Source of the DNA: a virus
Lineage: Duplodnaviria; Heunggongvirae; Uroviricota; Caudoviricetes
DNA length: 45,525 nucleotides
Virus record (IMG/VR): IMGVR_UViG_2531839662_000040
Span: 1-45,525 of that record
Direction: 5' to 3' (one strand)
Positions 19,651 to 37,580 of this stretch are shown in pieces (the first letter of the stretch is position 1; every line of letters starts with the position of its first letter). The position numbers and the translations under genes were made by a program. Under the pieces are notes generated by a model. The model was not told the DNA's origin. It searched no databases and saw nothing but the letters and a program-made list of their open reading frames with translations.

Positions 19651-19660
19651 GGAGCAAAAC

Positions 19661-20569
19661 GTGTTAGTCAACGTTAAAAACGTCAAACAGATTTTTATCA
19701 ATCTGAAGGCCACCTTCCAGAAAGCCTTCGACCAGTCGCCAACTGACTGGCAGAAGGTGGCAATGGAAGTGCCATCAAACGGCAAGGAAAACGACTACAG
19801 CTGGTTAAGTCGTTTCCCGAAAATGCGCGAGTGGATTGGTGACAAGGTCGTCAAATCACTGGCGGCATTTAACTACACCATCCGTAACAAGGACTGGGAA
19901 GCCACGGTTGAAGTCGATCGTAACGACATCGAGGACGACCAGATTATGGGCTATGCCCTTCAGGCGAAAGGAGCCGGACAGTCGGCAGCAGAGCTACCGG
20001 CAGATATTGTGGCGTCCCTTATCAGTAACGGTTTTACCAATCTCTGTTATGACGGTCAGCCGTTCTTTGATACCGACCACCTGGTCGCCGGTAAATCGGT
20101 GTCCAACAAAGGCACCAAAAAACTCAAAGTTGGCTCGCTTGCCGAGGCGAAAGCCTCCTACGGTGCCGCCCGTACGGCCATGCGTAGTCTGAAAGATGAC
20201 GAAGGCGCATCCCTCAAAATTCGCCCGAATCTGCTGGTTGTGCCACCGGCGCTGGAGGATGACGCGAACTACCTGATGACCGCCGAGAAGTTCCCGGACG
20301 GCACGCCGAACCCGTACCGCAATACCGCCGAAGTGCTGGTGATGCCGGAGCTGGCGTCGGATTCTGCGTGGTTCCTGTTTGACACCACCAAACCGGTGAA
20401 ACCGCTGATTTATCAGCTGCGTAAAAAGCCTGTTTTTGTGGAGCAGACGGACTACAACAGCGACAACGTGTTCAAGCGTAAGAAGTTCCTGTTTGGTGCC
20501 GAAGCGCGCTGTAACGGCGGTTACGGCTTCTGGCAGATGGCATTTGGTTCAGATGGTACGACGGAGTAA
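19661..20569 (+). CDS. major head subunit (Mu T-like)
   Basis: GTG at 19661 preceded by AGGAG; about 303 aa; position after I-like gene. Confidence 0.75.
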   Translation: MLVNVKNVKQIFINLKATFQKAFDQSPTDWQKVAMEVPSNGKENDYSWLSRFPKMREWIGDKVVKSLAAFNYTIRNKDWEATVEVDRNDIEDDQIMGYALQAKGAGQSAAELPADIVASLISNGFTNLCYDGQPFFDTDHLVAGKSVSNKGTKKLKVGSLAEAKASYGAARTAMRSLKDDEGASLKIRPNLLVVPPALEDDANYLMTAEKFPDGTPNPYRNTAEVLVMPELASDSAWFLFDTTKPVKPLIYQLRKKPVFVEQTDYNSDNVFKRKKFLFGAEARCNGGYGFWQMAFGSDGTTE

Positions 20570-20572
20570 TGC

Positions 20573-20914
20573 ATGGAAAAGGTGATTGAAATTACCGCCC
20601 GCCGTGAGGGTTTTCGCCGCTGCGGTGTGGCACACAGCGCAACCACGAAGGCATGGCCTGTGGATGCGTTCACCCCGGAACAGCTGGCGGTGCTGAAGGC
20701 GGACCCCATGCTGATTGTGGTGGAGCGTGATAAAGCGTCCGGCCAGAACGACGCGGACCAAAGTGATGAACTGGTCGCACAACTGGATGCCGAACGCCAG
20801 AAAGTCAGCGAACTGACGGCGCAACTGGAAGAAGAACGCCAGAAAGTCAGTGAACTGACCGCACAGCTGAACGCCGCACAGAAAACACAAAAAGCGGACA
20901 AAAAGGAGAAGTAA
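20573..20914 (+). CDS. hypothetical coiled-coil protein with internal tandem repeat
   Basis: 113 aa; ERQKVSELTAQL repeated twice. Confidence 0.4.
   Translation: MEKVIEITARREGFRRCGVAHSATTKAWPVDAFTPEQLAVLKADPMLIVVERDKASGQNDADQSDELVAQLDAERQKVSELTAQLEEERQKVSELTAQLNAAQKTQKADKKEK
20792..20869 (+). repeat. 42-bp-period direct repeat inside CDS 20573..20914
   Basis: GAACGCCAGAAAGTCAGYGAACTGACSGCRCARCTG twice. Confidence 0.5.
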
Positions 20915-20917
20915 CCC

Positions 20918-21349
20918 ATGTCTTACGCCACACCGGAACAGTTCATCAGGGCGTTCAGTGAACGAGAGGCACGCACACTGACGGATGAAGACATGACGGG
21001 ATTCATCGACGAAGAAAAGCTGGCCTCCGCGCTTGCGCGCGCCAGTGCCCAGATTGATGGCTATCTGGTGGGGCGTTACCGGACCCCGTGGCCTGACAGC
21101 CCGGGGATTCTGGTGGGTTACTGCTGCGATATCGCCCGTTACCACCTGGCGACCGATTACCGTATCTGCTCAGAAGAAATTCAGATGCGCTACCGGGATG
21201 CCATCCGCTTTCTGGAGAAAGTCGCGGCAGGACAAGTCAACCTCGGACGGGATACGTCCGGCAGCGTGATCCAGTCATCGTCACAGGTGCGTATCCGCTC
21301 CGGCTCCCGTCAGTTCGGGCGTGAGTCCACGCGGGGAGGTGCATTCTGA
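20918..21349 (+). CDS. Mu gp36-like protein (DUF1320 family)
   Basis: 143 aa; synteny after major head gene. Confidence 0.55.
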   Translation: MSYATPEQFIRAFSEREARTLTDEDMTGFIDEEKLASALARASAQIDGYLVGRYRTPWPDSPGILVGYCCDIARYHLATDYRICSEEIQMRYRDAIRFLEKVAAGQVNLGRDTSGSVIQSSSQVRIRSGSRQFGRESTRGGAF

Positions 21350-21402
21350 TTACTGACATTGAACGGGCGCTGGTTGAGCGTCTGCGCTGTGGTCTGGGGC
21401 AT

Positions 21403-21984
21403 ATGGTGCAGGATGTCCGCACCTATGCCGGTGAACTGGATGAAGACCCTGGCCGGATTGTTCGCAGCCTTCCGGCAGCCTGGGTGACGTTCGGCGGCAT
21501 CGTGAAAACCGAACGCTATTCCACGTCGCGCCGGAAATACATTGCCACCGGACGCTTTGTGGTTGTGGTGGGTGATTACAACACCCGCAGCGAACAGAGC
21601 GCCAGACAGGGAGGCTCTGTCCGGGATGAAGTCGGGACAAACCAGCTGGTTGAATCCGTCCGTCGCCTGCTGACCGGTCAGGATTTGGGGCTGGAGATTG
21701 ATTATTTCGAACCCGGGCGGGTCAGGACGCTGTTTAACACCGGCGTGGCAGAGCGGGCAATGTCCGTGTTTGCCTGTGAGTTCGATACCCGCTGGGTGGA
21801 GCACGCGCTGGAGAACGGCAAATGGCCGGAGCGTGGCGCAGAAGCGGACCGCCTCTTCAACCGCTACCACGGCAGGCTGTCAGACCCTGACCCGGATTTA
21901 CTGCGAATTGGTACGCAATACGGCGCAGATATCTGTGGTCTGGATGAATTAAGAGAGCAACAGCATGAACAAAATGAAGGTTAA
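21403..21984 (+). CDS. Mu gp37-like protein
   Basis: 193 aa by synteny; start uncertain (frame is open back to the previous stop but without a canonical start codon). Confidence 0.45.
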   Translation: MVQDVRTYAGELDEDPGRIVRSLPAAWVTFGGIVKTERYSTSRRKYIATGRFVVVVGDYNTRSEQSARQGGSVRDEVGTNQLVESVRRLLTGQDLGLEIDYFEPGRVRTLFNTGVAERAMSVFACEFDTRWVEHALENGKWPERGAEADRLFNRYHGRLSDPDPDLLRIGTQYGADICGLDELREQQHEQNEG

Positions 21985-22207
21985 GGCGGCTCACGGGATG
22001 AAGTTCCCGATGGAGGATAACGCCCGGAAATACATCACCACGGAAGCGGTGACCGTTGAGAATACCGCTTATTACCGGCGCGCCGTTCAGGACGGTGACC
22101 TGATTCTGGTGAAGGATGAACCTGAAGCCACCGAGGTGGCTGAACAGGACGCCGTGCAGGTAAAAGCGAAGGTGAAGAAAGAGAAACAGGTGGGCTCCGA
22201 TGAGTGA
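21965..22207 (+). CDS. Mu gp38-like small protein (DUF2635-like)
   Basis: 80 aa immediately upstream of tail sheath. Confidence 0.45.
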   Translation: MNKMKVKAAHGMKFPMEDNARKYITTEAVTVENTAYYRRAVQDGDLILVKDEPEATEVAEQDAVQVKAKVKKEKQVGSDE

Positions 22208-23621
22208 AATTCAGTTTGACACCATTTCGGGCGGCATCCGTAAGCCCGGTGTGCATTTTGAGTTTAATACCCGACTGGCCGTTAACACGCTGCCGGGTAA
22301 TGAACAGCGTGTTCTGGTGATTGGTCCGATGCTGTCAGGCGGCACCGCCACGCCCCTGAATGCCGTCTCCGTGTATTCCGAAGACGAAGCGGATTTGTAT
22401 TTCGGGGCCGGTTCGCTGGCCGCTGCAATGGCGCGCGCGGCCATTAATGCCAACAGCTATCTGCAACTGGATGTTATCGGTATTGCAGACAGTGGCGCAG
22501 GAAAGGCGGCAACCGGCGCAGTTACCGTCAGTGGCACGGCAACCAGCAGCGGCACGCTGTCGGTATGGGTTGCCGGTGAGCAGGTCACGGTGGATGTGGA
22601 AACCGGTGATGAACCGTCGAAAATCATTCCGGCACTGGTGGAAGCAATGACGCAGACGCCATCGCTTCTGGTCACGGGGGAATACAAATCGGAAGCCTCT
22701 CAGCTGACGGTGACCACCCGGACCAAAGGGGCCTGGGGGGATGATATCACCCTGTCAGCGTCCACCACGGCAGGCGGTCTGACCGTGAGCGCCACGCCGA
22801 TGGCGAACGGCGAAATGGATCCGGATATTCAGCCCGCACTGGATGCGGTCTTTGCCGCCGGTCACAACATTCTGATTTGTCCGTTCAGTACCACGCCAGC
22901 CCTTGCTGCCCTGAAGCAGCATCTGGAGAAAACCGGGAACGCGATGGAACAGCGCGGCGCGATTGGCTGTGCGGGCTGGACGGGTAGTCTCGGAAACGGG
23001 ATCACCCTGGCAGCCGGTGTGAACAGCGGGCGCGTGTCCGTCCCCTGGTATCGCGGCTCCGTGAAGCTGCCAGCGGTGCTGGCTGCCATCTACGGCGCTG
23101 TGATGGCGGGCGAGGAAGACCCGGCGCGTCCGCTGAACTCGCTGGCGCTGTCCGGGCTGGATGTGGTCGCCATGTCACAGCGTGAAAGCCGTAACGAGCA
23201 GGAAAACGCCCTGCATAACGGCCTGACACCGGTTGAGGTTGGCCCGGGTAATACGGTGCAGATTGTGCGTGCAGTCAGTACCTACACGGTGAACGCGCAG
23301 GGCGTGGCTGATGTCTCGCTACTGGATATCACGTCCATCAGAACGCTGGATTACACCCGTAAGGCGTGCCGCGAACGTATCAGCCTCCGCTTCCCGCGTG
23401 AAAAACTCAGCACCCGCACTATCGCAAAAGTGGAAAGTGAACTGTATGACGTGCTGATCAAGCTGGAGGAAGCGGAAATTCTGGAGAACGTGGAAGCGAA
23501 CAAGGCAAAGCTGCGCGTTCAGCGAAACGGGAAAGATGCAAACCGTCTCGACTGCGTGGTTCCGGCGGATGTGGTTAACGGCCTGCACGTGTTTGCCGGT
23601 CGCATCGACATGATTTTGTAA
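22200..23621 (+). CDS. tail sheath protein (Mu L-like)
   Basis: 473 aa; followed by tube, chaperone and tape measure. Confidence 0.8.
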   Translation: MSEIQFDTISGGIRKPGVHFEFNTRLAVNTLPGNEQRVLVIGPMLSGGTATPLNAVSVYSEDEADLYFGAGSLAAAMARAAINANSYLQLDVIGIADSGAGKAATGAVTVSGTATSSGTLSVWVAGEQVTVDVETGDEPSKIIPALVEAMTQTPSLLVTGEYKSEASQLTVTTRTKGAWGDDITLSASTTAGGLTVSATPMANGEMDPDIQPALDAVFAAGHNILICPFSTTPALAALKQHLEKTGNAMEQRGAIGCAGWTGSLGNGITLAAGVNSGRVSVPWYRGSVKLPAVLAAIYGAVMAGEEDPARPLNSLALSGLDVVAMSQRESRNEQENALHNGLTPVEVGPGNTVQIVRAVSTYTVNAQGVADVSLLDITSIRTLDYTRKACRERISLRFPREKLSTRTIAKVESELYDVLIKLEEAEILENVEANKAKLRVQRNGKDANRLDCVVPADVVNGLHVFAGRIDMIL

Positions 23622-23633
23622 GGAGCGCGGTAA

Positions 23634-24008
23634 ATGTCCATTAAAGAATATGTCGGCTCGATTGTGCTGGAGGTGGACAGCCAGGAAATCGAGATCACCG
23701 ACTTCGATGTTCAGATCAACACCGGACGAAAGCTGGTCAAGACCATGAACAAAACCGGCAGGGCAAAAGGCTTTGCCCGTGGCATTGCCACTTACGATAT
23801 TTCAGTTTCGGCGGTTATCCCTGATACCAACGAGCCGGACTGGGAAAATCTGGAAGGTGTGAAAATCTCAATTTATCCGCTCAGCAACAGCGGTAAGCGC
23901 ACCTCCTATCTGGACTGCTTCACTGTTGAAGTGGGTGAGAAATACACCGTCGACAGTGAAGCGAAAATTGATATCAAAATGGCTGCACTCAGGAAGGTGA
24001 CAGGATGA
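23634..24008 (+). CDS. tail tube protein (Mu M-like)
   Basis: 124 aa directly after sheath. Confidence 0.7.
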   Translation: MSIKEYVGSIVLEVDSQEIEITDFDVQINTGRKLVKTMNKTGRAKGFARGIATYDISVSAVIPDTNEPDWENLEGVKISIYPLSNSGKRTSYLDCFTVEVGEKYTVDSEAKIDIKMAALRKVTG

Positions 24009-24388
24009 CTTTGATTAATACACAGACCGGCGAACTGTCTGATGGCGTGGTATTTAACGGCACCGTTCATAAAAACTTTGAGCTGCGTCTGCCGGTCATG
24101 CGTGATAACGGGCAGGCACTGGAAGAAACCGAAGAACGCTTTCAGACGGTGGACGGCTTCGCGGCAGATTATTACTACCGTTGTGCAGTGATGGCGGCAA
24201 CGCTGGTCCGTCTTGGGGATATCCCGCAGGAAGAACTGACGGCGGATCTGTTGCACGACAACATGACGCCGGACGATTTTAATATTCTGCTGGCATCACG
24301 CAACGTCCTGAAGGTAAAGCGGAACGGCGGGAATCCCGGCTCGCCGGACTCCGGCTCGCAGTCCTCATCCTCGGGCGCTACGGAATAA
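24005..24388 (+). CDS. tail assembly chaperone (Mu gp41-like)
   Basis: 127 aa between tube and tape measure; Ser/Gly-rich C-terminus; overlapping -1 frame open from 24283 to 24561. Confidence 0.5.
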   Translation: MTLINTQTGELSDGVVFNGTVHKNFELRLPVMRDNGQALEETEERFQTVDGFAADYYYRCAVMAATLVRLGDIPQEELTADLLHDNMTPDDFNILLASRNVLKVKRNGGNPGSPDSGSQSSSSGATE

Positions 24389-24550
24389 CCGAAGAGCAAA
24401 TCATGACCATGAGCCGTCCCGAGCTGGACGGCTGGCTTGCCGCCGTTGACAGGCTGAACGGCGGCGGCTCAGGAAGGAAGGACACCTCACAGACCACCCG
24501 CCAGTCATTTAAATCCCTCAGAAAGAAACGCAGAAAAGGTAAGCAGAAAA

Positions 24551-26830
24551 ATGGCCGGTAATTTCAAAGTTGGCATGACCCTGACTGCGAAGGACGAAGC
24601 CTCGCAGGTCCTGGAAAAGGGACAAAAACAGGTTATCAAAGCCACCGAAGGTGTAACAAAGGCAACCCGGAAAGCAGGCGCAGAGCAGAAGCGTACCGAG
24701 CAGGAAAGCATTAACAGCACGAAAAAGGCCGCAAAAGAGATACAGCGTGCCGCCCGTGCCCGGGAAACGCTCGGTATTCGTGCAGAACGCGAGATCCGGC
24801 GTGAAATTTATCTGACGGTTGCCAGTTATAACCGTCTGGCCCGCGCCGGTTTTGAATCTGCGCAGGAGCAGGAGCGCGCCATGCAGGCCACCCGGGAAAA
24901 AGCCCGGGCACTCAAGCGCGAACTGGATGGCGTTACTCAGGCTCAGATGAAGATGGCGAAAACGCCTGTTATCCCTGAACAGGGGCGTTTTGCGCGTGCA
25001 GCTGCATTTGGCAGGAATGCCGTGACAACAGGCGCTGGTATCGCAGCAGGTGCGGCTATTATGGCGCAGCCGGTCAAAAAGCAGATGAGCTACGAACGCC
25101 AGCTGGCAATGATGGCCAATACCGCTTTCAGTGATGGCGGCCTGGAGGGGCGCAGAGCTGGTCTTGAGCAGATGAAAAGCAGCATCCGTAACGCAGTGAC
25201 CTATGGTGGCGGTACGAAAGAGGATGCAGCCGAAACACTGGATGCCTTGCTGAAAGACGGCATTTCATTTGAAACAGCCAGTAAGTGGCTGCCCGAACTG
25301 ATGAAATACGCCACGGCTTCAGGCGCATCTGCAACAGACCTGGCTAAGGTGATGATTAAGGGCAAAAAGACCTTTGGATTCAGGGATGAAGATATTTCCA
25401 CCGTTCTGAATATGGCGATTGCAGCGGGCAAAGAAGGCAGCTTTGAACTGAACGACATGGCCCGCTGGTTATCCCAGCAAATGGGCGCTGCGTCAGCTGC
25501 GGGGATGAAAGGCAAGGATGATTTCGTCAAGATTCTGGCGCTGAATGAAGCTGCCGCCATCACGGCGGGAAGCAGTGATGAAGCCGGAAATAACGTGGTT
25601 AACCTGCTGGCAAAACTGACCAGTAAGGATATTGAAACAGCGGCTGCGGGGATAAATTACAACGGTAAGGGAATCGACTTTTCCGGTACGCTGACTGAAG
25701 CACGTGAGAATGGACTTAATCCGATAGACGCGCTGTCCAGCCTGATAGACAAAATCGTTGCCAGCGATAAACGCTATCAGGAGCTGCAAAAGAAACTGGC
25801 CTCCGCCCGGGATAAAGGTGAGCAGACGGCTGTTTATGATTCGATGGCAACACTCCTTGAAGGCTTTGGTGTCGGAAAGCTGATTGCAGACCGTCAGGCG
25901 TTGATGGCGTTGTTAGCCTACCGTAACAACCCTGAATACCGGAAAAAGGTTGAAGACGCGATTAATCAGCAGCGCACCCTGCCGGAAGGTCAGCGCGCGG
26001 GTGATGTGGATTTTAAATTCATATCAGATACGAATGATTTTAAAACCGAACAGGCTAAAAACACGCTTGAATTTTCACAAATGGACAGCGTGAAAAAGCT
26101 GGCGGATGCATCCGGTACTGTGGCCGATGCCATAAGCTGGGCGGGTGAAAAATTTCCGGGACTGACCACAGCAGTCGTGGGTGCCACGACCGCCATTGAA
26201 GCGATGACCGCAGCAGCCCTGACATGGGCCGGGATCAAAATCCTGACCGGGGGTAAACCCGGTGGCAAGGCTGGCGAGGTTGTCGGTGATGTCATTGAAA
26301 ACACGGTCAAAAAAGGCAAAGGATTTAAATTCCCCGGCATTGCCGGTGGCCTGCTTTCTTTCGGTAGCACCGTTACGGCACTGGCCACTGCAACCAGCCC
26401 GGAAGAAGACGCCGCCGTCGAAGGAAGCGAGGAGCGCTGGAAAAATATACGGGCTAAATATCCTCAGTGGCTGATTGATGCTGCCCGTGAAAAATATCAG
26501 CCGTGGTGGCAGTTTGGCGAAGGTTACTCAACAGAAAACGAGAAATGGATCCAGCAGTATCTTGACGAACTGAAAAAAACCGGGGTTATCGCCGGTGATT
26601 CTCTGCCAACACCAGAACAAGTCCGACAGCAAGCCGGAATGGCAGCGTCTGAAACGGCATCAAAGCAACCCGGACGCATCACCCAGCCGGAATACCTCAC
26701 GCACTGGGGACCACCTGCCAGCCCCATTAATTTCACCACACAACTGGTGCTCGATGGTCAGGTCGTGGCGGAAGCGGTGAATAAATACAACCTTCAGGAC
26801 GGCAACAGAGGCACGGGAGGAACTTACTGA
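24551..26830 (+). CDS. tail tape measure protein (Mu-type)
   Basis: 759 aa, Ala/Gly-rich with predicted coiled regions. Confidence 0.8.
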   Translation: MAGNFKVGMTLTAKDEASQVLEKGQKQVIKATEGVTKATRKAGAEQKRTEQESINSTKKAAKEIQRAARARETLGIRAEREIRREIYLTVASYNRLARAGFESAQEQERAMQATREKARALKRELDGVTQAQMKMAKTPVIPEQGRFARAAAFGRNAVTTGAGIAAGAAIMAQPVKKQMSYERQLAMMANTAFSDGGLEGRRAGLEQMKSSIRNAVTYGGGTKEDAAETLDALLKDGISFETASKWLPELMKYATASGASATDLAKVMIKGKKTFGFRDEDISTVLNMAIAAGKEGSFELNDMARWLSQQMGAASAAGMKGKDDFVKILALNEAAAITAGSSDEAGNNVVNLLAKLTSKDIETAAAGINYNGKGIDFSGTLTEARENGLNPIDALSSLIDKIVASDKRYQELQKKLASARDKGEQTAVYDSMATLLEGFGVGKLIADRQALMALLAYRNNPEYRKKVEDAINQQRTLPEGQRAGDVDFKFISDTNDFKTEQAKNTLEFSQMDSVKKLADASGTVADAISWAGEKFPGLTTAVVGATTAIEAMTAAALTWAGIKILTGGKPGGKAGEVVGDVIENTVKKGKGFKFPGIAGGLLSFGSTVTALATATSPEEDAAVEGSEERWKNIRAKYPQWLIDAAREKYQPWWQFGEGYSTENEKWIQQYLDELKKTGVIAGDSLPTPEQVRQQAGMAASETASKQPGRITQPEYLTHWGPPASPINFTTQLVLDGQVVAEAVNKYNLQDGNRGTGGTY

Positions 26831-28179
26831 TGGGCTGGGCTGAAAACCTGCAAAACGCCTCCTTTCGTGGCGTGCAGTTTGATGTACTGAACACGGATGA
26901 ACAAATCAGCCGCGACCATGCGGTCTATGAATACCCGTTTGTTGACGGGGCGGATTTGCACGACCTCGGGCGCAAGGCGCGACCGTTCCGCATGACGGCG
27001 TTCCTGTGGGGGGAGTATTACGAATATAAACTCGAAAAGCTGATCGCCGCCCTGGACGAAGGCGGCGATGGTGAGCTGATTCACCCGGTTTATGGCTCCG
27101 TTCCGTCGGTGATTGTGACCGGCTACAGCATTCGCCATGACGCAGAAAGCCCGGACAGCTGCACCATCGACATGAGCTTTCTGGAGAACCGCACCGGCAG
27201 CGCGTTGTTCAGCACCCCGTTACCGGAGCTGTTTGCACAGCAGTTATTTGAAGAACTGGATAAGTTACTGGCACAGTTAAGCGAATTATTTGACGCTGTT
27301 ACGGCCCCTTTAAAGACCATTAACAGCGTGATTAAAAAAATCCAGACAGTGCGCGCCACACTGGTAAATACCCTGCTGACGTTCAAAAGCGATTTTCTCT
27401 CATCCATCGACAATATGATGTCGCTGGCCAGCGAACCCGGGAAATTTATTGGCGGGCTGGCAGAGGTGCTGGAAATCCACACGTCAGATGTCGGGCACGC
27501 GGTGCCGGTGCTGGAGCGTACTGATTCCGCCACCACGACCGGACTGACCGGGGAAGACAGCGTCGCCAGTTCTGCGACAGTGATGACCTGCTGGAATGAG
27601 GTGACGGCAGATATGGATGAGCTGGTCGCGCTGCCGGTCGCACTGGTCAGCGGTGATAAAACGCCGTCTGTGGCACTTCCGCCGGATGCGTCCGTGGAAG
27701 ACGTGCAGGACGTGAAAGCGGCTTATGCGGTTCTGGCAGCCTCAGAGCTGGCCAGCGTGGCGACGGCGATACTGTCCGATGAGGCCCAGTCAGAACAGCT
27801 TATACCGGCAGATATCGGGCGACTGGTCGGGGATGTGCGCACCCGCTTACAGGCAGCCATCACGCTGTTCCGTGAACGCTATGAAAGCGAACGCGAACGG
27901 ATAACCGAAACCGCATCACCACTGGGGCTGATGTACCCGGAAATCATTCAGAGCATGAAGAACGTGGCGGCATCCGTGCAGGATGTCGGCCTGCTGGTTC
28001 TGTCACGCCGCCCACCGCTGACGCAGAAACAGGTGCAGGCGGACAGCTGTCTGCTGTTGCTGGCGTGGCAGTGGTACGGTGATTACAGCCGTGCGGCAGA
28101 GCTGCAACGTCTGAACCCGCAGCTGCGTGACCCGAACAACATAACCGCCGGGATGGTGATTAATGCCTACGCAAAATAA
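26830..28179 (+). CDS. Mu N-like DNA circularisation/tail protein
   Basis: 449 aa following tape measure, as in Mu. Confidence 0.7.
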   Translation: MGWAENLQNASFRGVQFDVLNTDEQISRDHAVYEYPFVDGADLHDLGRKARPFRMTAFLWGEYYEYKLEKLIAALDEGGDGELIHPVYGSVPSVIVTGYSIRHDAESPDSCTIDMSFLENRTGSALFSTPLPELFAQQLFEELDKLLAQLSELFDAVTAPLKTINSVIKKIQTVRATLVNTLLTFKSDFLSSIDNMMSLASEPGKFIGGLAEVLEIHTSDVGHAVPVLERTDSATTTGLTGEDSVASSATVMTCWNEVTADMDELVALPVALVSGDKTPSVALPPDASVEDVQDVKAAYAVLAASELASVATAILSDEAQSEQLIPADIGRLVGDVRTRLQAAITLFRERYESERERITETASPLGLMYPEIIQSMKNVAASVQDVGLLVLSRRPPLTQKQVQADSCLLLLAWQWYGDYSRAAELQRLNPQLRDPNNITAGMVINAYAK

Positions 28180-29374
28180 CGACGACAAAATCAGTCTGGT
28201 CATTGCCGGAAGGTCGCATTCTGACTGGAGCAGTTACCGTATTGACAGTGATTTCCTGAAAGCTGCCGACGGCTGGCAGCTTCAGTTGGGACTGCCTGAA
28301 AAGGTGTTCCCGGCGGATATCGTCCGGGGTGCGCCAGTCCGGTTGCAGGTGGGAGACGAAACGGTGCTCAGTGGTCGCGTGGACAGCGTGCGCCGCAGTG
28401 TATCCCGTCAGAGCTGCACGCTGACGCTGTCCGGGCGTGATGATGCCGCCATTCTGGTGGACTGTGCCGCGCCGGTGTTCAGCGCCAACCAGCTGACACT
28501 GGACGAGGTCATCGACAGGATAGTCAGACCGCTGGGGATACAGCGCATTCGTATTCAGGCGTCCGGTGTGTCACGTAATGACAAGGTCGTTATAGAGCCG
28601 GGGATGCGTGCGTGGGATGCACTGGCTAAAGCTGCCGCCGGTCGCGGCTTATGGCCGTGGTTTGAGCCTGACGGGACGCTGGTTGTGGGTGGCCCTGACT
28701 ACACCACCACGCCGGTGGATACGCTGATTCTGAAGCTGGACGGCACCGGGAACAACGTGATGGAGCTGGATGATACCCGGTCCATTAACGGCTGCTTCTC
28801 CGAACTTACAGTGCTGGCACAGAGCCACGCCCGCCGCGCAGACAGCAAAAAGCAGCTGGCCACAGTGCCACTGGATATCTGGAACGAGGACGGCAGCGTG
28901 CGCACATTATCCGGGCGGGACGGCGGTAATACGGACAATGGCCAGACAGGCATTCATAACATGAAAGCTGTGGCCACCGACCCCACCGTGGATTATTACC
29001 GCCCGCAGATTATCACTCAGGGTGACACCAGCAACCTGGAGCAGGTGAACTGGCGCGCCAAAAAAATGATGAGTGATGCCCGTCTGTCGGGGCTGGATAT
29101 CGTCGCACTGGTTGCAGGTCATCGCACGGCGGACGGTGTCCTGTGGCAGCCCGGCCAGCGTGTGCGGATTGTCAGCGAACCCCACGGCATCGACGCCATC
29201 TTTTTCCTGATGGGGCGTGAGTTCAGCGGAGGCCGTAACGGGAAGACAACCCGGCTCCGATTTAAGGAGGACGGCGTGTGGATACCTGACGCCTTCCCGC
29301 GCGAGAAGAAACGCCATCACCGCAGGGGCAAAAAGAAAAAAGAGGTCGCCATTGTTAAGGTCTGGGAGAAATGA
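28163..29374 (+). CDS. Mu P-like tail protein (P2 gpD-like fold)
   Basis: 403 aa; synteny N then P. Confidence 0.7.
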   Translation: MPTQNNDDKISLVIAGRSHSDWSSYRIDSDFLKAADGWQLQLGLPEKVFPADIVRGAPVRLQVGDETVLSGRVDSVRRSVSRQSCTLTLSGRDDAAILVDCAAPVFSANQLTLDEVIDRIVRPLGIQRIRIQASGVSRNDKVVIEPGMRAWDALAKAAAGRGLWPWFEPDGTLVVGGPDYTTTPVDTLILKLDGTGNNVMELDDTRSINGCFSELTVLAQSHARRADSKKQLATVPLDIWNEDGSVRTLSGRDGGNTDNGQTGIHNMKAVATDPTVDYYRPQIITQGDTSNLEQVNWRAKKMMSDARLSGLDIVALVAGHRTADGVLWQPGQRVRIVSEPHGIDAIFFLMGREFSGGRNGKTTRLRFKEDGVWIPDAFPREKKRHHRRGKKKKEVAIVKVWEK

Positions 29375-30024
29375 TGTGGGACAAAGTTAATCAGCGCGTA
29401 CAGCAGGCACTGGCCGCCGTTCGCCAGGCATTCAGGGTGGTGACCGGTACGGTGGACAGTTCGACCAAAGTACAGTTGCTTCAGCTGAACGGGCTGGCAG
29501 GCGAACAGCTGGATGGTGCGGAGTATTTCCAGCATTACGGCCTCACCACATCTCCGCCACCCGGCTCGATGGGTATTGCCGTTCCGCTGAACGGCAATAC
29601 CTCCCATACCGTCGTCGTGGCCACAGAGCACGGCGCATATCGCCTGACGGAACTGAAACCCGGCGAGGTGGCCCTGTATACCGATGAAGGCGCGAAAATC
29701 GTACTGAAACGCGGGCGGGTTGTTGAAACGGACTGTGACGTTTACCGGGTGAAATGCAAACGCTATGAGGTTGAGGCAGAGGAAAGTGCCGCATTCACGA
29801 CACCGTTACTGACGGCCAGCGATAAGCTGACGGTGGAAGGTAAAATCACCGGCAACGGTGGCATGGCCATCAGTGGGGGCAAGAAATACGCCGCCACCTT
29901 TGAAGGCAACATCAACCATGTGGGTGGTGTGATTACCTCCGTTGACGTCACCGTTAATGGCGTTAAAATCGGAACGCATAAACACGATACCCCTCACGGC
30001 ATATCTGGTCTGCCGCATAATTAA
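29371..30024 (+). CDS. baseplate spike protein (Mu gp45 / P2 gpV-like)
   Basis: 217 aa; C-terminal His-rich apex GTHKHDTPHGISGLPHN. Confidence 0.65.
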   Translation: MMWDKVNQRVQQALAAVRQAFRVVTGTVDSSTKVQLLQLNGLAGEQLDGAEYFQHYGLTTSPPPGSMGIAVPLNGNTSHTVVVATEHGAYRLTELKPGEVALYTDEGAKIVLKRGRVVETDCDVYRVKCKRYEVEAEESAAFTTPLLTASDKLTVEGKITGNGGMAISGGKKYAATFEGNINHVGGVITSVDVTVNGVKIGTHKHDTPHGISGLPHN

Positions 30025-30044
30025 GTGCTGAACCCCCTCACCTG
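30025..30044 (+). promoter_or_regulatory. conserved late-operon motif, copy 3 (GTGCTGAACCCCCTCACCTG)
   Basis: shares GTGCTGAAC core with copies at 10660 and 18083; lies between spike and gp46-like genes. Confidence 0.35.
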
Positions 30045-30077
30045 ATTCTGACCTGTCCATGCTGCCAGACTGGCGGC

Positions 30078-30428
30078 ATGGACCAGACGATTTCACCTGC
30101 AACCGGCGACTACGAACGCCGCCGGATTTATACACTCCATAACGCGGTTTATCTGCGACTGGCGACACCGCTTGGCAGTTACTGGGCGGATGCGTCGCTG
30201 GGGTCACGCCTGCACGAACTGAAGCGGGAAAAAGACGTTTCCCGTGTTCACAGGCTGGCGGCGCAGTATGCCAGCCAGGCACTTCAGCCCCTGCTTGATG
30301 ACGGGCGGGCAAAATCCATTACCGTTGACACGAAAGCGGGCCAGCGCGGCTGGTTGTTGCTGTTAATCACTGTCACGGATAACGCGGGCACACCGCAGAC
30401 GTTTGAACACCCTGTGAGGATTATGTAA
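30078..30428 (+). CDS. baseplate protein (Mu gp46 / P2 gpW-like)
   Basis: 116 aa by synteny. Confidence 0.55.
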   Translation: MDQTISPATGDYERRRIYTLHNAVYLRLATPLGSYWADASLGSRLHELKREKDVSRVHRLAAQYASQALQPLLDDGRAKSITVDTKAGQRGWLLLLITVTDNAGTPQTFEHPVRIM

Positions 30429-31507
30429 TGCCGTTTCCTGTTCCGGGCGTTGCTGAAAACACAGAACGCCAGCTACGTGATATCGCTAACGCCCTGCCGG
30501 GAGAAACCATCGACACCGGCGCTGACAGCGATTACCGCATTCGTGCAAATGCCGTATCCGGCGTGGCGGACGGGCTTTATATGCATCAGGGATGGATCCT
30601 CCGTCAGGTGTTTCCTGACACGGCAGACCCTGAATATCTGGAGCTGCACTGCCGTACGCGCAATGTTTTTCGTAAAAAAGCAACGGCCTCATCCGGTCCG
30701 GTAGTGATTACCGGCACACCCGGTAAGACGCTGCCAGCCGGTGCGGAAATTCGTGGTGAAGGTGTCAGCGTGACCACCACAGCAGACTGCACCGTCGGCG
30801 ATGAAGGCAGTGCAGAGGTGACGGTAAAAAGCTCCGCCACGGGTGCACAGACGAACGCATCCGCAACGCAGACGGCAACGCTGGTCAGCCCGCCGGAAGG
30901 CATCAACAGCACGGTGACGATTAAATCCCTGACCGGCGGAACGGACAGGGAAAGCGACGCCGACCTGCTGGCGCGTTATCTGGATATTCTGCGCAGGCCG
31001 CCCGCTGGCGGTAACAAATATGATTACAAACGCTGGGCGCTGGAAGTGGATGGCGTTACGTCTGCGTATGTGGAGCCGTTGCGTCGTGGACTGGGGACGG
31101 TTGATGTGGCCATTACGTCAGCCAATGACCTCCCTTCGCAGGAACTGATTAATGCCGTGCTGGCACATATTGAGGAAGTCCGCCCGGTCACAGCGAAAGA
31201 CACGATGGTACTGGCCCCGACGAAAAAAGCCGTTGATTTCGTTGTCCGGGTAAAAACCAGCGGCCTGACCGTTGAGCAGATAAAACCGCAGATAACTGAC
31301 GTTATCACGGATTTTATGAACCGGCTGGAGCCGGGGCAGGAATTAATTATTTCACAACTGGAAACCCAGATTTCATTAATTTCCGGTGTCAGTGACCGGC
31401 GAATCATTACGCCAGCAGACAATGTAAAAGCCATTATTAACGCGTCAACGTGGGAATGGCTGCGTCCGGGAAATATTGATATTCAGTCCTTTCCGCGTGA
31501 GGGGTGA
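30428..31507 (+). CDS. baseplate J-like protein (Mu gp47)
   Basis: 359 aa by synteny and size. Confidence 0.7.
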   Translation: MPFPVPGVAENTERQLRDIANALPGETIDTGADSDYRIRANAVSGVADGLYMHQGWILRQVFPDTADPEYLELHCRTRNVFRKKATASSGPVVITGTPGKTLPAGAEIRGEGVSVTTTADCTVGDEGSAEVTVKSSATGAQTNASATQTATLVSPPEGINSTVTIKSLTGGTDRESDADLLARYLDILRRPPAGGNKYDYKRWALEVDGVTSAYVEPLRRGLGTVDVAITSANDLPSQELINAVLAHIEEVRPVTAKDTMVLAPTKKAVDFVVRVKTSGLTVEQIKPQITDVITDFMNRLEPGQELIISQLETQISLISGVSDRRIITPADNVKAIINASTWEWLRPGNIDIQSFPREG

Positions 31508-31510
31508 TTC

Positions 31511-32083
31511 ATGAATATGGTCGATTTATTTCGCGCCATGCTGCCGCCTGTCAGTTATGACCAGAACGGAAAATATATTTCCGCAGAACTGATGGCCGAG
31601 GCTAACGTCATGGAGGCCGTGAAGGCATCAGCGGCGAGTGTTCTGGCACAAATCACCCCATTGCAGGCATCGATGACGCTGTCTGACTGGGAGCGCGTGT
31701 ACGGTGTTGTCCCCCGTGAAGGTGCCACGCAACAGGAGAGGCGGCAGAACATCCAGGTCAGGATGGCTGCCACTGGCGGGCTGTCAATTCCTTACTTTAA
31801 GAGTCTTGCCGCCAGCCTGGGCTACACCATCACCATTACGGAGCCGCGAGCGTTCCGGGTGGGGATAAATCGCTGCGGTGACCGTCTGCTGATACCGGAA
31901 ATCCGCTGGGTGTGGCAGGTCAATGTTATCGGGACAAAAACGCCGGTCTACCGTTTCAGAACGGGGGCATCGGCAACCGGCGAACCGCTGACGGCCTTTG
32001 GTGAATCCATTTTAGAAAACACGTTTAAAGACCTTAAACCGGCTTTTACAGACTGTTATTTCACATATGAGGTGGAGGAATAA
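31511..32083 (+). CDS. baseplate/tail protein (Mu gp48 / P2 gpI-like)
   Basis: 190 aa by synteny. Confidence 0.6.
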
Positions 32084-33066
32084 TGCAGAATTTAATGCCT
32101 CCGGTGAATACGCCGGATAAGCTATTTCATGATGGTGACCCCACTCAGGGAATTGAGGGAACCATCGTTTACGCCGAATATATGAATAATCATCAGGCGG
32201 CAACGCGCGATTTGCAGCAGGAGGTGATTAACGTCCTTAAAGAGGCTGGCGTAACCCCGGATCCGAAAAAACAGAATCAACTGGTTGAGGCGCTGGCCTT
32301 ATATGTCGGGAAAAAAGTTCCTGACGCATCATTAACGAAGAAGGGTATCGTTCAGCTCAGTAGTGCAACAGACAGTGATTCAGAAGAACTGGCTGCCACC
32401 CCAAAGGCAATAAAGGCGTTAGCAAAAAAAATTGCTGATTTACAGGGTACGGCTTTACCGGTCGGGACACCAATCCCGTGGCCATCTGATTCTGTGCCAT
32501 CCGGTTATGCCTTAATGCAGGGGCAAAGTTTTGATAAAGGCTCTTACCCTAAACTTGCGGTTGCCTATCCGTCCGGGGTTATTCCTGATATGCGCGGCTG
32601 GACTATCAAGGGTAAGCCTGCCAGTGGTCGTGCCGTATTGTCTCAGGAACAGGATGGCATCAAGTCGCATACCCACAGTGCCAGTGCGTCAAATACCGAT
32701 TTAGGAACGAAAACGACAAGTTCATTTGACTACGGCACCAAGACAGTCAGCACGTTTAACCACGGCACAAAATCAACAAATAACACAGGAAATCATACGC
32801 ACAGTGTCGGTGGTGTTTATGGCGGCGACTCTATCGGCGGAAAACAACGTGTGCAGGCGTCAGGGAGCAATCAGATTTCCAGTACTGCCGGAGCACATGC
32901 TCATACTGTCGATATTGGTCAGCATAACCACACCGTAGGTATTGGTGCCCATGCACACACTGTGGCATTGGGTGCGCACGGGCACACCATCACGGTAAAT
33001 CCAACAGGCAATACCGAAAACACCGTCAAAAACATTGCATATAACTATATTGTGAGGCTGGCATAA
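32083..33066 (+). CDS. tail fibre protein (Mu S / P2 H-like) with His-rich HxH repeats at C-terminus
   Basis: N-terminal [25 protein letters not shown] and collar-like [11 protein letters not shown]...PDMRG; C-terminal HTHS, GNHTHS, GAHAHTV, QHNHTV, GAHAHTV, GAHGHTI repeats. Confidence 0.7.
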
Positions 33067-33641
33067 TGACTTTCAAAATGAGTGCAGAAGCACAAACCAT
33101 TCGTGTATTTAATTATCTCGATGGCACAAATGAATTTATTGGCGAAAGCGACGCATATATTCCACCTCATACAGGTCTGCCAGCTAATTCAACAGATATT
33201 GCGCCTCCTGATATTCCGGCGGGTTTTGCTGCCGTGTTTAATGCTGATGAAATGAAATGGCATCTGATGGAAGACCACCGAGGGAAAACGGTTTATTCAA
33301 CAGAAACCGGAGTAGCTGTAACAGTGTCTGAACTGGGAAGCCTTCCTGAAAATGTGACTTCTGTTTCTCCTGATGGCGAATACCAACGCTGGAATGGCAG
33401 TCAGTGGGTGACAGATGAAGAAGCCAGGCGTAATGCGCTGATAAATCAGGCGGCAGAGAAGAAAGCGGGTCTGCTTAAACAGATGGGAGAGCAAATCGCC
33501 GTTTTACAGGATGCCGTTGATTTTGGTGAAGCGACGCCAGAAGAACAGGAACAGCTGACAGCCCTCAGGAAATTACGAATAAAGTTAAATCGCATTCAAC
33601 CGGAAAACGCGCCAGATATTGACTGGTCAGACTTTGAATAA
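33066..33641 (+). CDS. tail fibre assembly protein (lambda Tfa / Mu U-like)
   Basis: N-terminus [33 protein letters not shown] closely matches recalled lambda Tfa. Confidence 0.8.
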
Positions 33642-33649
33642 ATCAGACA

Positions 33650-33670
33650 GCCGCCCGCAGGCGGCTTTTT
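33650..33670 (+). terminator. rho-independent terminator
   Basis: GCCGCC-CGCA-GGCGGC followed by TTTTT. Confidence 0.6.
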
Positions 33671-33686
33671 ATCATTCAGAGGTTTT

Positions 33687-35303
33687 ATGTCTGTATTAAT
33701 CTCAGGCGCGCTTATTAATGGCGCTGGCGTTCCGATGGCGGAATGCAAAATTTATTTAGATGCACTGGTTAATACCAGTGAGGTGGTCACTGAATCATTC
33801 GCGGTTATTGAAACCGATGCGGCGGGACAGTATGCCTTTGAAGCGCAAAAAGGCAAATACACCGTACACATCAAGCAAAAGAACGGCCCCAAGTGCTGCG
33901 TGGGTGATATCGCTGTATACGATGACTCAAAGCCCGGCACACTGAATGATTTTCTGACCGCCCCCAATGAAGGCGACCTCAAACCCGACGTGGTGAAACG
34001 CTTTGAGGAAATGGTGGCGCAGGCGCAGCAGAGCGCGGAAGCGGCAGCGGAAAGCGAACGACAGGCCGGGCAACACGCAGCTGATGCGCAGAAGATTAAG
34101 GGTGATTGCCAGACGCTGGCAGATAATGTTCAGCAGAATACAAATGCTGTGGAGGAAAACACGCAGCGCGTTGAACAGCTGGCCTCAGAAGTTGAGCTGA
34201 ACGCCGGGCAGGTGCAGCAGGGCGTGCAGAATGTTACTGATGCGGTAAAAAAGGCGCAGCAGGCAGCAAAGAATTCTGCTGACAGTGCCACTGACTCAAA
34301 AAACAGTGCTGACAACGCCGCCCTGAGCGAACAGAACGCACAAAAACACGCGCAGAAAGCTGAACAACATGAGCAGCAGACTAAACAATATGCGCAGGAT
34401 GCAGCGACCGCCGCAGAATCAGCAGAGAACGCCAAAGGCGAAATTGACGAAATTCTGGATGGCGGCTATCTCAAGATAAAAAACAACTTTCAGGAAATTG
34501 TTGATGCTGGCCCCTCAGCACTGGCTCAGGCCCAATGGAATTTACAGATTTCCGGGGTGAAAAATAAACAGGTAATTGCCACCCCTTATACATGGCCATC
34601 CAGAACTGAGTATGAACAAAGGGTGCATCTGCCACTCGCCGGGGCTTACGGATTTGGCTACACGTTTGAAGACAAAAGCCAGGGACGTATAAACCTTAGC
34701 GAAAGTTACACCGGCTCCTGGTGGTCACAGTGGGTAAAGCCGGGGCGTTATTACGTTACAACCAGTGATAAACAATATCTGACACCAGACGGGTACACGT
34801 ACGGGGTTGTTGATGTGCTGTGGCTTAACGGTAACGCATATAATGACGCTTCGCAGGTTCTTAAAATACTGGCTTTTTACGATGGTGACGGATGCCTGCA
34901 TATCGGCAAGCGCGTTGGTCAGAGCAACTGGTCAATAAGCTGGCGCAAGCTGACATCGCTCCCTGATGTCAGGGCCATGCTGTATTCATATATTTATAAT
35001 AATTACAACAGAGAATGGCGTGACCCGGAGCTGGGAGGTTTAATTCTGGCGTCATACCAGGGAACCGCAGACGGCGACACAAATATAAAAGTATCCCGTG
35101 GTCAGACTTATCCCGGCTCACGACTTGCACCTGTGGCGATAGAATGCCAGTTCACTCCATCCGGTACGTATGCCGCAACACCGCGATTCCATATTACCGG
35201 CTGCAAGAGCAAATCACTCCCCGGAACTTATATTTCACTGTCTGGAGCACCCACAACATACAGCGACCAGGCTTTTGTGGCGCTATTCATGAGGATTGCA
35301 TGA
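33687..35303 (+). CDS. side tail fibre protein (lambdoid Stf-like N-terminus)
   Basis: 538 aa; MSVLISGALINGAG N-terminus of lambdoid Stf type; Ala/Gln-rich coiled middle; distinct C-terminal domain. Confidence 0.65.
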   Translation: MSVLISGALINGAGVPMAECKIYLDALVNTSEVVTESFAVIETDAAGQYAFEAQKGKYTVHIKQKNGPKCCVGDIAVYDDSKPGTLNDFLTAPNEGDLKPDVVKRFEEMVAQAQQSAEAAAESERQAGQHAADAQKIKGDCQTLADNVQQNTNAVEENTQRVEQLASEVELNAGQVQQGVQNVTDAVKKAQQAAKNSADSATDSKNSADNAALSEQNAQKHAQKAEQHEQQTKQYAQDAATAAESAENAKGEIDEILDGGYLKIKNNFQEIVDAGPSALAQAQWNLQISGVKNKQVIATPYTWPSRTEYEQRVHLPLAGAYGFGYTFEDKSQGRINLSESYTGSWWSQWVKPGRYYVTTSDKQYLTPDGYTYGVVDVLWLNGNAYNDASQVLKILAFYDGDGCLHIGKRVGQSNWSISWRKLTSLPDVRAMLYSYIYNNYNREWRDPELGGLILASYQGTADGDTNIKVSRGQTYPGSRLAPVAIECQFTPSGTYAATPRFHITGCKSKSLPGTYISLSGAPTTYSDQAFVALFMRIA

Positions 35304-35872
35304 TGCAGATAAAAGAAATTACCAGCCCCCACTACACCGAATCCGGTGCGATTGACTGCGAAGTTTTATTTGAAGGGATGGATGAAGCCGTTCCGTACAC
35401 AGCCACACCAGAAGACACAGCAACAACAGGCCAGCAAATTTGGCAGGAACTGCAAAGCGGCAAATGGGGCGAGATTGCCCCGTTCACCGCATCACCTGAA
35501 CTTATCGCAGCAGCAAAGGACGCCAAAAAACGGGAAATTGAGGCATGGCGCACAGAACAGGAAGCGCAGCCATTCACGTTCGAATGGAACGGCCGCACAT
35601 GGAACGCTGGCCCCGACTCAATGGCCCGTCTTTATCCTGTGGTAATGGCTGCAAAATCTGATACGGCACGAACTGCCCTTGCGTGGGGTGACGCCGATAA
35701 TCAACAGGTGAAACTGTCGATGCCGGAACTGGAAGAACTGGCAGCCGCGATGGCGCAGGCGCAGGTTGAGCGCAATGACGAGATTTATCAACGCCAGCGT
35801 GAGATGAAGGAGGAACTGAATAACCTGGATGATTTACGCTCAATCAGAGCGATGACGATTAGCAGCAGTTAG
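35300..35872 (+). CDS. tail fibre assembly protein (Tfa)
   Basis: ATGA overlap with fibre stop; 190 aa; highly similar to the Tfa at 44953..45525. Confidence 0.65.
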   Translation: MMQIKEITSPHYTESGAIDCEVLFEGMDEAVPYTATPEDTATTGQQIWQELQSGKWGEIAPFTASPELIAAAKDAKKREIEAWRTEQEAQPFTFEWNGRTWNAGPDSMARLYPVVMAAKSDTARTALAWGDADNQQVKLSMPELEELAAAMAQAQVERNDEIYQRQREMKEELNNLDDLRSIRAMTISSS

Positions 35873-35876
35873 CGGT

Positions 35877-35937
35877 CAATTCTGGACTTTTTGGGCGCAC
35901 CTGAACCGTCCAGAATTGCGCGTCAATCAGTCCAGAA
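35877..35937. repeat. inverted repeat CAATTCTGGAC / GTCCAGAATTG with third TCCAGAA copy
   Basis: 11-bp arms separated by 20 nt; third half-site about 12 nt further on; lies between a Tfa and an N-terminally short fibre ORF. Confidence 0.35.
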
Positions 35938-35955
35938 AAAAACGCGAAGTTACAG

Positions 35956-37032
35956 ATGATCAGCGACAGAGGTACGCTTATCGCGTACGGACGTTATCCC
36001 GACACCTTTTTACCAGACCAGACGGACTCCGTTATCAAGGAAGTTATTCTGACGCTGGTTCTTGGGTTGACGCACGCACAAAACGTGGTGCTGGAAGTTG
36101 ATCCGGACAGGGCCATTATTACTCAGGAAATCGGAGACAGACGCTATCTGCAACGAAAAAAGAATCTTTCGGATGTGGAAGACAAGGATGAGGCTGTTGA
36201 AAACCTCGGATTAAAACCCACGGTGGACAAGGCAAAAAATGCCGTTCAGCGTGATGGTGACACCATGACCGGGGAACTGAAAATCCGTGGTGTTAATGCG
36301 CTGAGGATTTTCAACGAGGCTTTTGGCCTGATTTTTCGTCGTTCAGAAGATTACCTGCACTTCATTCCCACGCAGGAAGACCATGGAGAAAATGGTGATA
36401 TTGGCCCACTGCGGCCCATTTCCATTAACCTGCGCCAGGGCGATGTGGTTATTGGTGACAGGATTGGCATCGGTAATGAGAACAATCTGGGTGAAAAATC
36501 ACTCACGCTCTGTGATAGCAATACCGGTTTTAAGTGGGGCGGACGCGGTGTTATTAATGTGTTTGCAGAGGGACACAACGTCTTTCGTTTTACAAAAAAC
36601 GGTGTGCTGGCATTAGAAAATCTCTCGACCGGCAATTTAAGAAAGTTCACGCTGTCGTGTGACAGTTCTTCCACGAAGAGTGCAAGATTTAATCTATGGG
36701 GAAATTCCTCAAGGCCTGTTGTTGCAGAGCTTGGTGATGATTCTGGCTGGCATTTTTACAGTCAGAGGAATACGGATAACAGCATAACGTTTGCCGTAAA
36801 CGGGCAGATGGTTCCATCAAACTACGGAAATTTTGATACCCGTTACCAGACCAGAACAGGTGGTGTGCAGGATGTGCGTCTGGGAGGTGCCATTGGTATT
36901 GGACGCGGAGGAAATGCGCCATCAGGTCATTTACTGAGTGGTGTTGATGGCGGTGAAAGTGTGGACTGGGCCAATGCACGCCCGGTGCAGGTTCTGATTA
37001 ATGGTGTCTGGCGAAATGTAGCGAGTTTGTAA
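35956..37032 (+). CDS. tail fibre C-terminal-type protein lacking Stf/H-like N-terminal domain
   Basis: 358 aa; GDTMTGEL fibre motif and Gly-rich C-terminus; weak RBS; frame open about 50 nt upstream without start codon. Confidence 0.5.
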   Translation: MISDRGTLIAYGRYPDTFLPDQTDSVIKEVILTLVLGLTHAQNVVLEVDPDRAIITQEIGDRRYLQRKKNLSDVEDKDEAVENLGLKPTVDKAKNAVQRDGDTMTGELKIRGVNALRIFNEAFGLIFRRSEDYLHFIPTQEDHGENGDIGPLRPISINLRQGDVVIGDRIGIGNENNLGEKSLTLCDSNTGFKWGGRGVINVFAEGHNVFRFTKNGVLALENLSTGNLRKFTLSCDSSSTKSARFNLWGNSSRPVVAELGDDSGWHFYSQRNTDNSITFAVNGQMVPSNYGNFDTRYQTRTGGVQDVRLGGAIGIGRGGNAPSGHLLSGVDGGESVDWANARPVQVLINGVWRNVASL

Positions 37033-37034
37033 TC

Positions 37035-37580
37035 ATGATGCACTTAAAAAATCTTACGGCACAAAACCCTAAAACAATTGAGCAATACCAGCTGGCACGA
37101 CAGCATAAATTTTTATTGTGGCTGTTCTCCGATGATGGTCAGGAATGGCACGAAGCCCAGGAAAAATTTCAGCCAGACACTCTGAAAGTTATTTATGTTG
37201 AAACTGGCGAAGTGGTCTGGGTCGGAAAAGACATCACCTCAATCTGCCCGGAAAATAAAAGTGTGATTGAGTTGCCGGATATTACCGCTAATCGTCGCAT
37301 TGAGGCGTCGGGATACTGGTTCTACCGCAATGATGAATTTGTTTTTGACTACAAACTTAAAGCGGAAGATGAGCGTGATGCACTGTTAAAACAGGTCAGC
37401 ATCATGACCAGCGAATGGGAAAAAGACCTGCTGCTGGGATTAATCAGTGACGAAGACAGGGAAAAGCTCAAAGCGTACCGCATTTACGCGAAATCGCTGC
37501 AGGCGATGGATTTCAGCGCTATTACGGATAAGACCACTTACAACAATATTAGCTGGCCTGAGCAGCCACAAAATACCTGA
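37035..37580 (+). CDS. tail fibre assembly protein (P2 G / TfaE-like)
   Basis: 181 aa; MMHLKNLTAQNPKT...VELPDITANRR resembles recalled TfaE-type chaperones. Confidence 0.7.
   Translation: MMHLKNLTAQNPKTIEQYQLARQHKFLLWLFSDDGQEWHEAQEKFQPDTLKVIYVETGEVVWVGKDITSICPENKSVIELPDITANRRIEASGYWFYRNDEFVFDYKLKAEDERDALLKQVSIMTSEWEKDLLLGLISDEDREKLKAYRIYAKSLQAMDFSAITDKTTYNNISWPEQPQNT

Follow-up and report, generated by a model that had tools for sequence, protein, structure and literature searches.

The tail fibre gene at positions 32083..33066 of the window, by which the whole stretch of 45,525 nucleotides analysed here is meant, encodes a protein in whose C-terminal half short His-x-His (HxH) motifs are clustered. 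The question raised by this locus is whether these motifs form a metal-binding tip that serves in receptor recognition. Iron needles built from HxH motifs in phage fibre tips have been textbook knowledge since 2010. The window matches the chromosome of Escherichia coli UMNF18 at 100% identity, and the fibre gene is part of a Mu-like transposable prophage that also carries MuA/MuB, Mor, gpT and baseplate genes of Mu type. The reading frame is open throughout on the plus strand, yielding a product of 327 amino acids (aa), and its ATG overlaps the stop codon of the upstream Mu gp48-like gene (31511..32083). Minus-strand and other-frame ORFs across the fibre region (52-70 aa) are mechanical only and unsupported. 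The parts of the fibre and the genes that follow it are listed in Table 1.

Table 1. Parts of the tail fibre and adjoining genes, in coordinates of the window.
Feature	Coordinates	Strand	Basis or content
Tail fibre gene, 327 aa and stop	32083..33066	+	Mu S-like base and T4 gp37/lambda Stf-type collar-and-needle tip
Mu S-like baseplate-proximal part, aa 1-122, one Phage_fiber_2 repeat	32083..32448	+	Alignment to Mu S
Collar, N-terminal part, aa 123-194 (equivalent to T4 gp37 D10 811-881)	32449..32664	+	PF07484, E 4.5e-10; BLASTP
Descending needle arm (predicted), aa 196-240	32668..32802	+	HxH 1 (H196/H198), three decamers, HxH 2 (H238/H240)
Hypervariable tip loop (predicted), aa 241-271	32803..32895	+	Equivalent to T4 tip subdomain 932-959 and linker
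Ascending arm (predicted), four HxH at 9-residue period	32896..32985	+	H272/274, H281/283, H290/292, H299/301
C-terminal strand, aa 311-327, predicted to return and complete the collar	33013..33063	+	Equivalent to T4 1010-1026, near-identical
Tail fibre assembly chaperone (Tfa/gp38-type)	33066..33641	+	Pfam Caudo_TAP, E 3e-32
Second fibre gene of the Mu-like prophage, lambda Stf-type 'prophage tail fibre N-terminal' domain	33687..35303		
DUF4376 partner of the second fibre gene	35300..35872		

An earlier note on this DNA, made from the sequence, had listed six HxH motifs, and exactly six were found in the 327-aa product, with the same strings: HTHS at aa 196 (nt 32668), HTHS at aa 238 (32794), HAHT at aa 272 (32896), HNHT at aa 281 (32923), HAHT at aa 290 (32950) and HGHT at aa 299 (32977..32988). 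The span that it gave for them, 32668-32983, starts correctly but cuts the last motif, which ends at 32988, a trivial discrepancy. Thirteen of the 15 histidines of the fibre fall within aa 196-301, and 12 of those 13 belong to HxH pairs. The last four motifs are spaced at exactly nine residues, in the pattern GxHxHTVxh. No tandem repeat was detected by Tandem Repeats Finder in the DNA beneath this 9-aa period, which indicates that the nonamers are old, diverged protein repeats with no recent duplication among them.

A segment rich in His, Gly and Thr could in principle give rise to such a cluster as a compositional accident, with no role in metal binding, and the biased composition of the segment is the sole point in favour of this explanation. 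Shuffling tests argue against it. Among 100,000 shuffles of the composition of the whole protein, none reached six HxH motifs (mean 0.64, maximum 5), and with shuffling limited to the His-rich C-terminal 137 aa the probability of obtaining at least six was 1.1e-4. The paired histidines are, in addition, invariant or nearly so across 100 diverse relatives for five of the six motifs, and they are in register with iron ligands determined crystallographically, as set out below. An accident of composition is effectively refuted and retains a negligible probability.

The C-terminal part of the fibre is homologous to the C-terminus of T4 gp37. A phmmer search of PDB sequences matched aa 123-327 to the chain of 2XGF, the crystal structure of the gp37 collar-and-needle tip, with an E value of 1.2e-77, and BLASTP aligned aa 100-327 to residues 792-1026 of full-length gp37 with 60% identity over 228 aa (E 4e-79). 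The T4 needle carries seven HxH motifs, with the first histidine of each at 883, 915, 929, 966, 980, 989 and 998, and all six motifs of the fibre align to HxH motifs of T4, these being six of the seven. The pairs in the BLASTP alignment are H196/198 with H883/885, H238/240 with H929/931, H272/274 with H966/968, H281/283 with H980/982, H290/292 with H989/991 and H299/301 with H998/1000. In T4 gp37 the collar (D10) comprises residues 811-881 and 1010-1026 and the needle (D11) residues 882-1009, with a tip subdomain at 932-959; seven iron atoms are coordinated along the needle axis by the HxH motifs, and the substitutions H929A and H931A are each lethal (PMC6957217). The HxH motifs of gp37, P2 gpV and the R-pyocin fibre are octahedral Fe sites, each formed by three symmetry copies of two histidines (PMC6116203).

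Pfam domains were distributed along the fibre in a corresponding order, with Phage_fiber_2 at aa 83-113, Collar at aa 128-175 and Phage_fiber at aa 191-204. The last of these (PF03335), around the first HxH, scored 23.7 bits and is above the gathering cut-off of 20. The collar is split by the insertion of the needle: the Pfam Collar domain lies on one side and the C-terminal 17 aa, near-identical to T4 1010-1026, on the other, and both were modelled confidently by AlphaFold2 (pLDDT 84-95 for aa 123-194 and approximately 89 for aa 311-327). The region very probably constitutes the needle (D11-like) domain of a receptor-binding tip of the T4 gp37/lambda Stf type. The earlier note predicted a metal-binding tip for receptor recognition, like that of gp37, and homology upholds this, on the match to 2XGF, the 60% identity and the in-register HxH motifs.

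Structure prediction for the needle itself was less informative. An AlphaFold2 monomer of the full protein, with an alignment of 35 sequences, had a mean pLDDT of 49.6 and was unusable. A monomer of aa 123-327, for which 100 diverse representatives were aligned, had a mean pLDDT of 64.0, with 84-95 in the collar and 40-68 in the needle. A Foldseek search with the latter model returned 2xgf_A as the sole significant match (E 1e-15), at a TM score of 0.35 and an rmsd of 18.6 Å. The monomer models and the superposition on 2XGF being poor, the alignment of the histidines along the axis is predicted from homology alone. The same homology modifies one element of the original description, in which the motifs had been placed at the distal C-terminus. 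They do cluster in the C-terminal half, but the C-terminus is not predicted to be distal, because the chain would fold back on itself; the distal pole would instead be the loop at aa ~241-271.

As regards trimer geometry, the identity and occupancy of the metal, and the receptor, we infer the following arrangement. The fibre would be a homotrimer, plugged into the Mu-type baseplate by its Mu S-like N-terminal part. Each chain would form the first part of the collar, run down the fibre axis (aa 196-240), form a distal variable loop (aa ~241-271), run back up (aa 272-310) and complete the collar, and the needle would be a six-stranded antiparallel beta structure. Both histidines of each HxH motif would face the three-fold axis, so that the three chains contribute six imidazoles binding one metal ion octahedrally. 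The bound metal would by homology be Fe(II), with six buried axial ions per trimer, and these ions would act as folding registers and stiffeners rather than as receptor ligands. Receptor specificity would sit in the hypervariable tip loop, and folding would need the Tfa/gp38-type chaperone encoded directly downstream.

The same fold and role might be combined with zinc or another divalent ion in place of iron. Crystals of the T4 short tail fibre gp12 had zinc at the HxH site (PMC6116203), and the metal cannot be specified from sequence alone. However, the zinc of gp12 may stem from refolding in a zinc salt (PMC6116203), and the closest homologue of the fibre by far is gp37, at 60% identity, where all seven HxH motifs are reported to hold iron (PMC6957217, PMC6116203, PMC12609058). 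A metal other than iron is considered unlikely, and the assignment of Fe(II) is retained as the predicted one.

Conservation within the family was assessed using an exhaustive HMMER search of aa 123-327 against 1.84 billion cluster representatives, which yielded 250 proteins at E <= 1e-30, and an alignment of 100 representatives, each less than 50% identical to every other. H196, H198, H281, H283, H290, H292, H299 and H301 were invariant in these 100 representatives and H238/H240 were conserved in at least 90% of them, while H272/274 were missing only in members with a shorter needle. The same held, with motifs invariant or almost so, for both alignments examined (A1 and A2). The descending arm of the family consists of an HxH motif, a number of xDxGTK decamers (TDLGTK, FDYGTK and others), an optional 14-aa HxH unit and a tip-proximal HxH; in the ascending arm, HxH nonamers come after a 14-aa HxH unit that may be absent. 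Nearly all members have their last HxH exactly 29 aa from the C-terminus. The three 10-aa repeats in the descending arm of the present fibre are TDLGTK, FDYGTK and FNHGTK. The histidine of the last of these, H227, was considered as a degenerate remnant of the second HxH of T4, an idea that arose from the alignment of FNH with GGH of T4 by both HMMER and BLAST. This was rejected: H227 occupies the Tyr position of an FDYGTK-type decamer, relatives have Tyr there, and comparison across the family identified FNHGTK as the third decamer of the descending arm.

The two arms vary in concert. Across approximately 236 complete modules there are as many 10-aa xDxGTK repeats on the descending arm as there are 9-aa steps from one ascending HxH motif to the next, with an optional distal pair of 14-aa units, one on each arm. 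When the first spacing is paired with the count of trailing 9-aa spacings, the combinations are 22/1, 32/2, 42/3, 52/4 and 62/5; a handful of exceptions were point-mutated or atypical. The resulting needles have from 4 to 10 HxH layers. With the spacings of the descending arm given before the slash and those of the ascending arm after it, T4 gp37 has seven sites (32,14 / 14,9,9) and lambda Stf eight (42,14 / 14,9,9,9), while the present fibre, the characterised phiNP ORF6 and the P2-like Salmonella phage STYP1 each have six (42 / 9,9,9). The fibre encoded at 32083..33066 is the three-unit, six-site form, with spacings of 42,34,9,9,9 when the interval across the tip loop is included.

Covariation of the arms is as predicted for an antiparallel fold-back hairpin with paired rungs and lends independent, if indirect, support to a T4 topology, with the reservation that the sequences compared share a phylogeny. 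The authors of the Bas63 study suggested that the number of motifs may scale with needle length (PMC12609058). It is possible, and is put forward here only tentatively, that needle length and iron load are a tunable trait, altered by concerted gain or loss of units, swapped independently of the tip loop and perhaps matched to the depth of the receptor under LPS or capsule. The paired copy-number rule itself was observed directly; an adaptive value for it, and the absence of a formal description of it in the literature, are conjectural. For engineering needle length, the rule provides a design principle that is modest and can be tested.

The loop between the arms is the variable element of the module. 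Among 85 distinct six-site modules, the mean pairwise identity of the tip loop (aa 241-271) was 0.33, as against 0.71-0.81 in the collar, both arms and the C-terminus, and its length ranged from 30 to 46 residues. Orthologous prophages of strains AH19B041 and STEC346 have kept the scaffold and have completely different loops. Near-identical tip loops were also found on needles of differing length. The T4 residues that bind LPS and OmpC map to the equivalent tip loop (PMC6957217), and aa 241-271 are predicted from this correspondence to be the receptor-contacting distal pole. The loop of the present fibre closely matches that of STYP1 but not those of T4, lambda or phiNP. The receptors of characterised relatives are OmpC, OmpF or LPS core glucose; on account of the difference in loop, no receptor is assigned to the fibre. 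Host range is predicted to be set by the loop at aa ~241-271 and the downstream Tfa, which would be useful to know for tip swaps that retarget phages or tailocins.

The chaperone gene that follows the fibre encodes a protein with 61% identity to lambda Tfa orf-194 (E 2e-86) and 28% identity to T4 gp38 (E 8e-18); a PDB sequence search gave no solved homologue of it. Tips and chaperones are mobile together among T4-, lambda- and other phages and have been described as a 'T4- and lambda-based RBP family' (PMC9659904), and the present tip and Tfa have travelled together as in that family. The adjacency of the two genes might also be read differently, with the needle as a mere scaffold and Tfa remaining on the tip as the real adhesin, in the manner of gp38 of T2-type phages; according to a note in the T4 record, the adhesin of those phages is an unrelated 'gp38'. 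The product of 33066..33641, however, is of the T4 gp38/lambda Tfa chaperone type and not of the T2 adhesin type. Furthermore, the T4 receptor-binding residues lie in the tip loop of gp37 itself (PMC6957217), and the equivalent loop is the hypervariable element in the present fibre. Retention of Tfa as the adhesin is very improbable, and the tip loop is preferred as the predicted site of receptor contact.

In RefSeq, positions 32332..33066 are labelled a partial pseudogene, 'incomplete; missing N-terminus', and the same label is found in strain STEC346. Taken at face value this would make the fibre a decayed, N-terminally truncated remnant and its HxH array a relic with no current function, and 327 aa is indeed short for a fibre. 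Several observations are at odds with such decay. The ORF runs unbroken from its ATG, which overlaps the stop codon of the preceding gene. AH19B041 has an orthologue annotated as intact, and the identical 327-aa protein occurs, also annotated as intact, in other E. coli. Proteins of 305-344 aa with the same architecture form dozens of 90%-identity clusters from E. coli, Salmonella and Citrobacter. The dN/dS ratio of the gene against two orthologues was 0.12-0.19, in the N-terminal and tip halves alike, a value indicative of purifying selection, and the functional receptor-binding protein of phiNP is shorter still at 282 aa. A remnant is scarcely credible on this evidence. The pseudogene label is probably an annotation artefact that arose from comparison with much longer fibres, and the annotation is corrected here to an intact receptor-binding fibre gene.

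The Mu-like prophage (window ~1..35954) has inserted into an outer prophage, interrupting its P2 H-like tail fibre gene. At the junction, 35954/35956, the N-terminal fragment of the interrupted gene ends ...LRELGM and the C-terminal fragment resumes M-ISDRGTLIA at 35956; the left junction lies at ~6170-6235 in the coordinates of sequence L006. A target-site duplication was sought, and the two junctions of the insertion share only GATG. Related Mu-like copies in other strains occupy sites in tkt and a toxin gene. The tail module of the outer prophage (35956..37580 and 37635..43525) is of P2 type and comprises the H C-terminal fragment, Tfa, sheath, tube, E, tape measure, U, X and D; lambda-type head genes (decoration protein, major capsid and FI) lie upstream of the window. 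Approximately 3.3 kb of this fibre region, in four pieces, is about 91% identical to the Stx phage phiP27. Paralogues of the second fibre gene and its DUF4376 partner in the Mu-like prophage, a pair 38% identical to them at 43550..44953 and 44953..45525, lie at the end of the outer prophage, beside potB.

Within the Mu-like prophage, the presence of a second fibre gene and its DUF4376 partner (Table 1) suggests that two kinds of fibre are probably displayed. A Mu-type invertible G segment with S'/U' and Gin was not encountered, no invertase being annotated before the right end of the prophage at ~35954, and the fibre genes downstream of 32083..33066 are all on the plus strand.

The N-terminal part of the fibre has a different affinity from the tip. 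Residues 44-74 and 79-113 align to residues 47-77 and 109-143 of the Mu tail fibre protein S (5YVQ) with an E value of 3e-9. No alignment to Mu S (5YVQ, 8JU3) was obtained beyond residue 143, and the C-terminal 205 aa match gp37. Confinement of the Mu S match to aa 44-113, with a match to gp37 beyond it, indicates that the fibre is a mosaic of a Mu-type base and a T4/lambda-type tip. The term 'Mu-type tail fibre', under which the protein had first been described, holds for the N-terminal ~115 aa and for the genomic context, but the part bearing the HxH motifs is of the T4/lambda type and not of the Mu S type. The gene occupies the position of Mu S, after homologues of gp47 and gp48 (Pfam Baseplate_J and Phage_Mu_Gp48 upstream) in a Mu-like prophage; the C-terminal receptor-binding domain of Mu S is replaced by the T4-type tip. 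This tip module is already known to move among T4-, lambda-, P2- and Mu-type tails. The tip of the present fibre is of a known kind, correctly read but ordinary, and it adds nothing on how HxH needles work.

The protein was compared with known fibres. T4 gp37 shares with it the order of collar, descending arm, tip loop, ascending arm and collar return, a near-identical C-terminus (NTVKNIAxNYIVRLA) and a gp38-type chaperone gene that comes next. The needles differ in that T4 has seven HxH motifs against six, a single FDYGTK decamer and a distal pair of 14-aa HxH units (32,14 / 14,9,9), whereas the present fibre lacks 14-aa units and has a second such decamer and one more 9-aa unit (42 / 9,9,9), each of its arms being 4-5 residues shorter. 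Its tip loop is 3 residues shorter than that of T4 and mostly different, with only the GG pair kept among the T4 receptor-critical residues, and beneath the tip there is a 122-aa Mu-like base in place of the ~800-aa shaft of gp37. The T4 short tail fibre gp12 is similar in the collar (9cuy, E 2e-10, aa 107-198), but there a compact head with one HxH motif comes after the collar, and in the present fibre the six-motif needle homologous to gp37.

Lambda Stf (orf-401/orf-314) is 51% identical over aa 43-327 and has the same collar-and-needle tip; it differs in its eight HxH motifs (42,14 / 14,9,9,9), in a tip loop of 45 aa (48 residues from first His to first His) and in an N-terminal attachment domain that is different and much longer. 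For the long tail fibre of the Felixounavirus Bas63, a 630-Å fibre of a lytic myovirus, six di-histidine motifs are reported in a tip like that of T4, together with a needle shorter than in T4 (PMC12609058). ORF6 of the Citrobacter phage phiNP is a tail collar fibre protein of 282 aa, of the 'T4- and lambda-based RBP family', for which a role as receptor-binding protein is experimentally supported (PMC9659904). Its N-terminus differs and its tip-loop sequence is unrelated, for which reason the phiNP receptor, LPS Glc-II, is not transferable to the present fibre. The two fibres have the identical layout of 42,34,9,9,9 and 58.8% identity over aa 44-327, and each is a short fibre encoded right after the baseplate genes and followed by Tfa.
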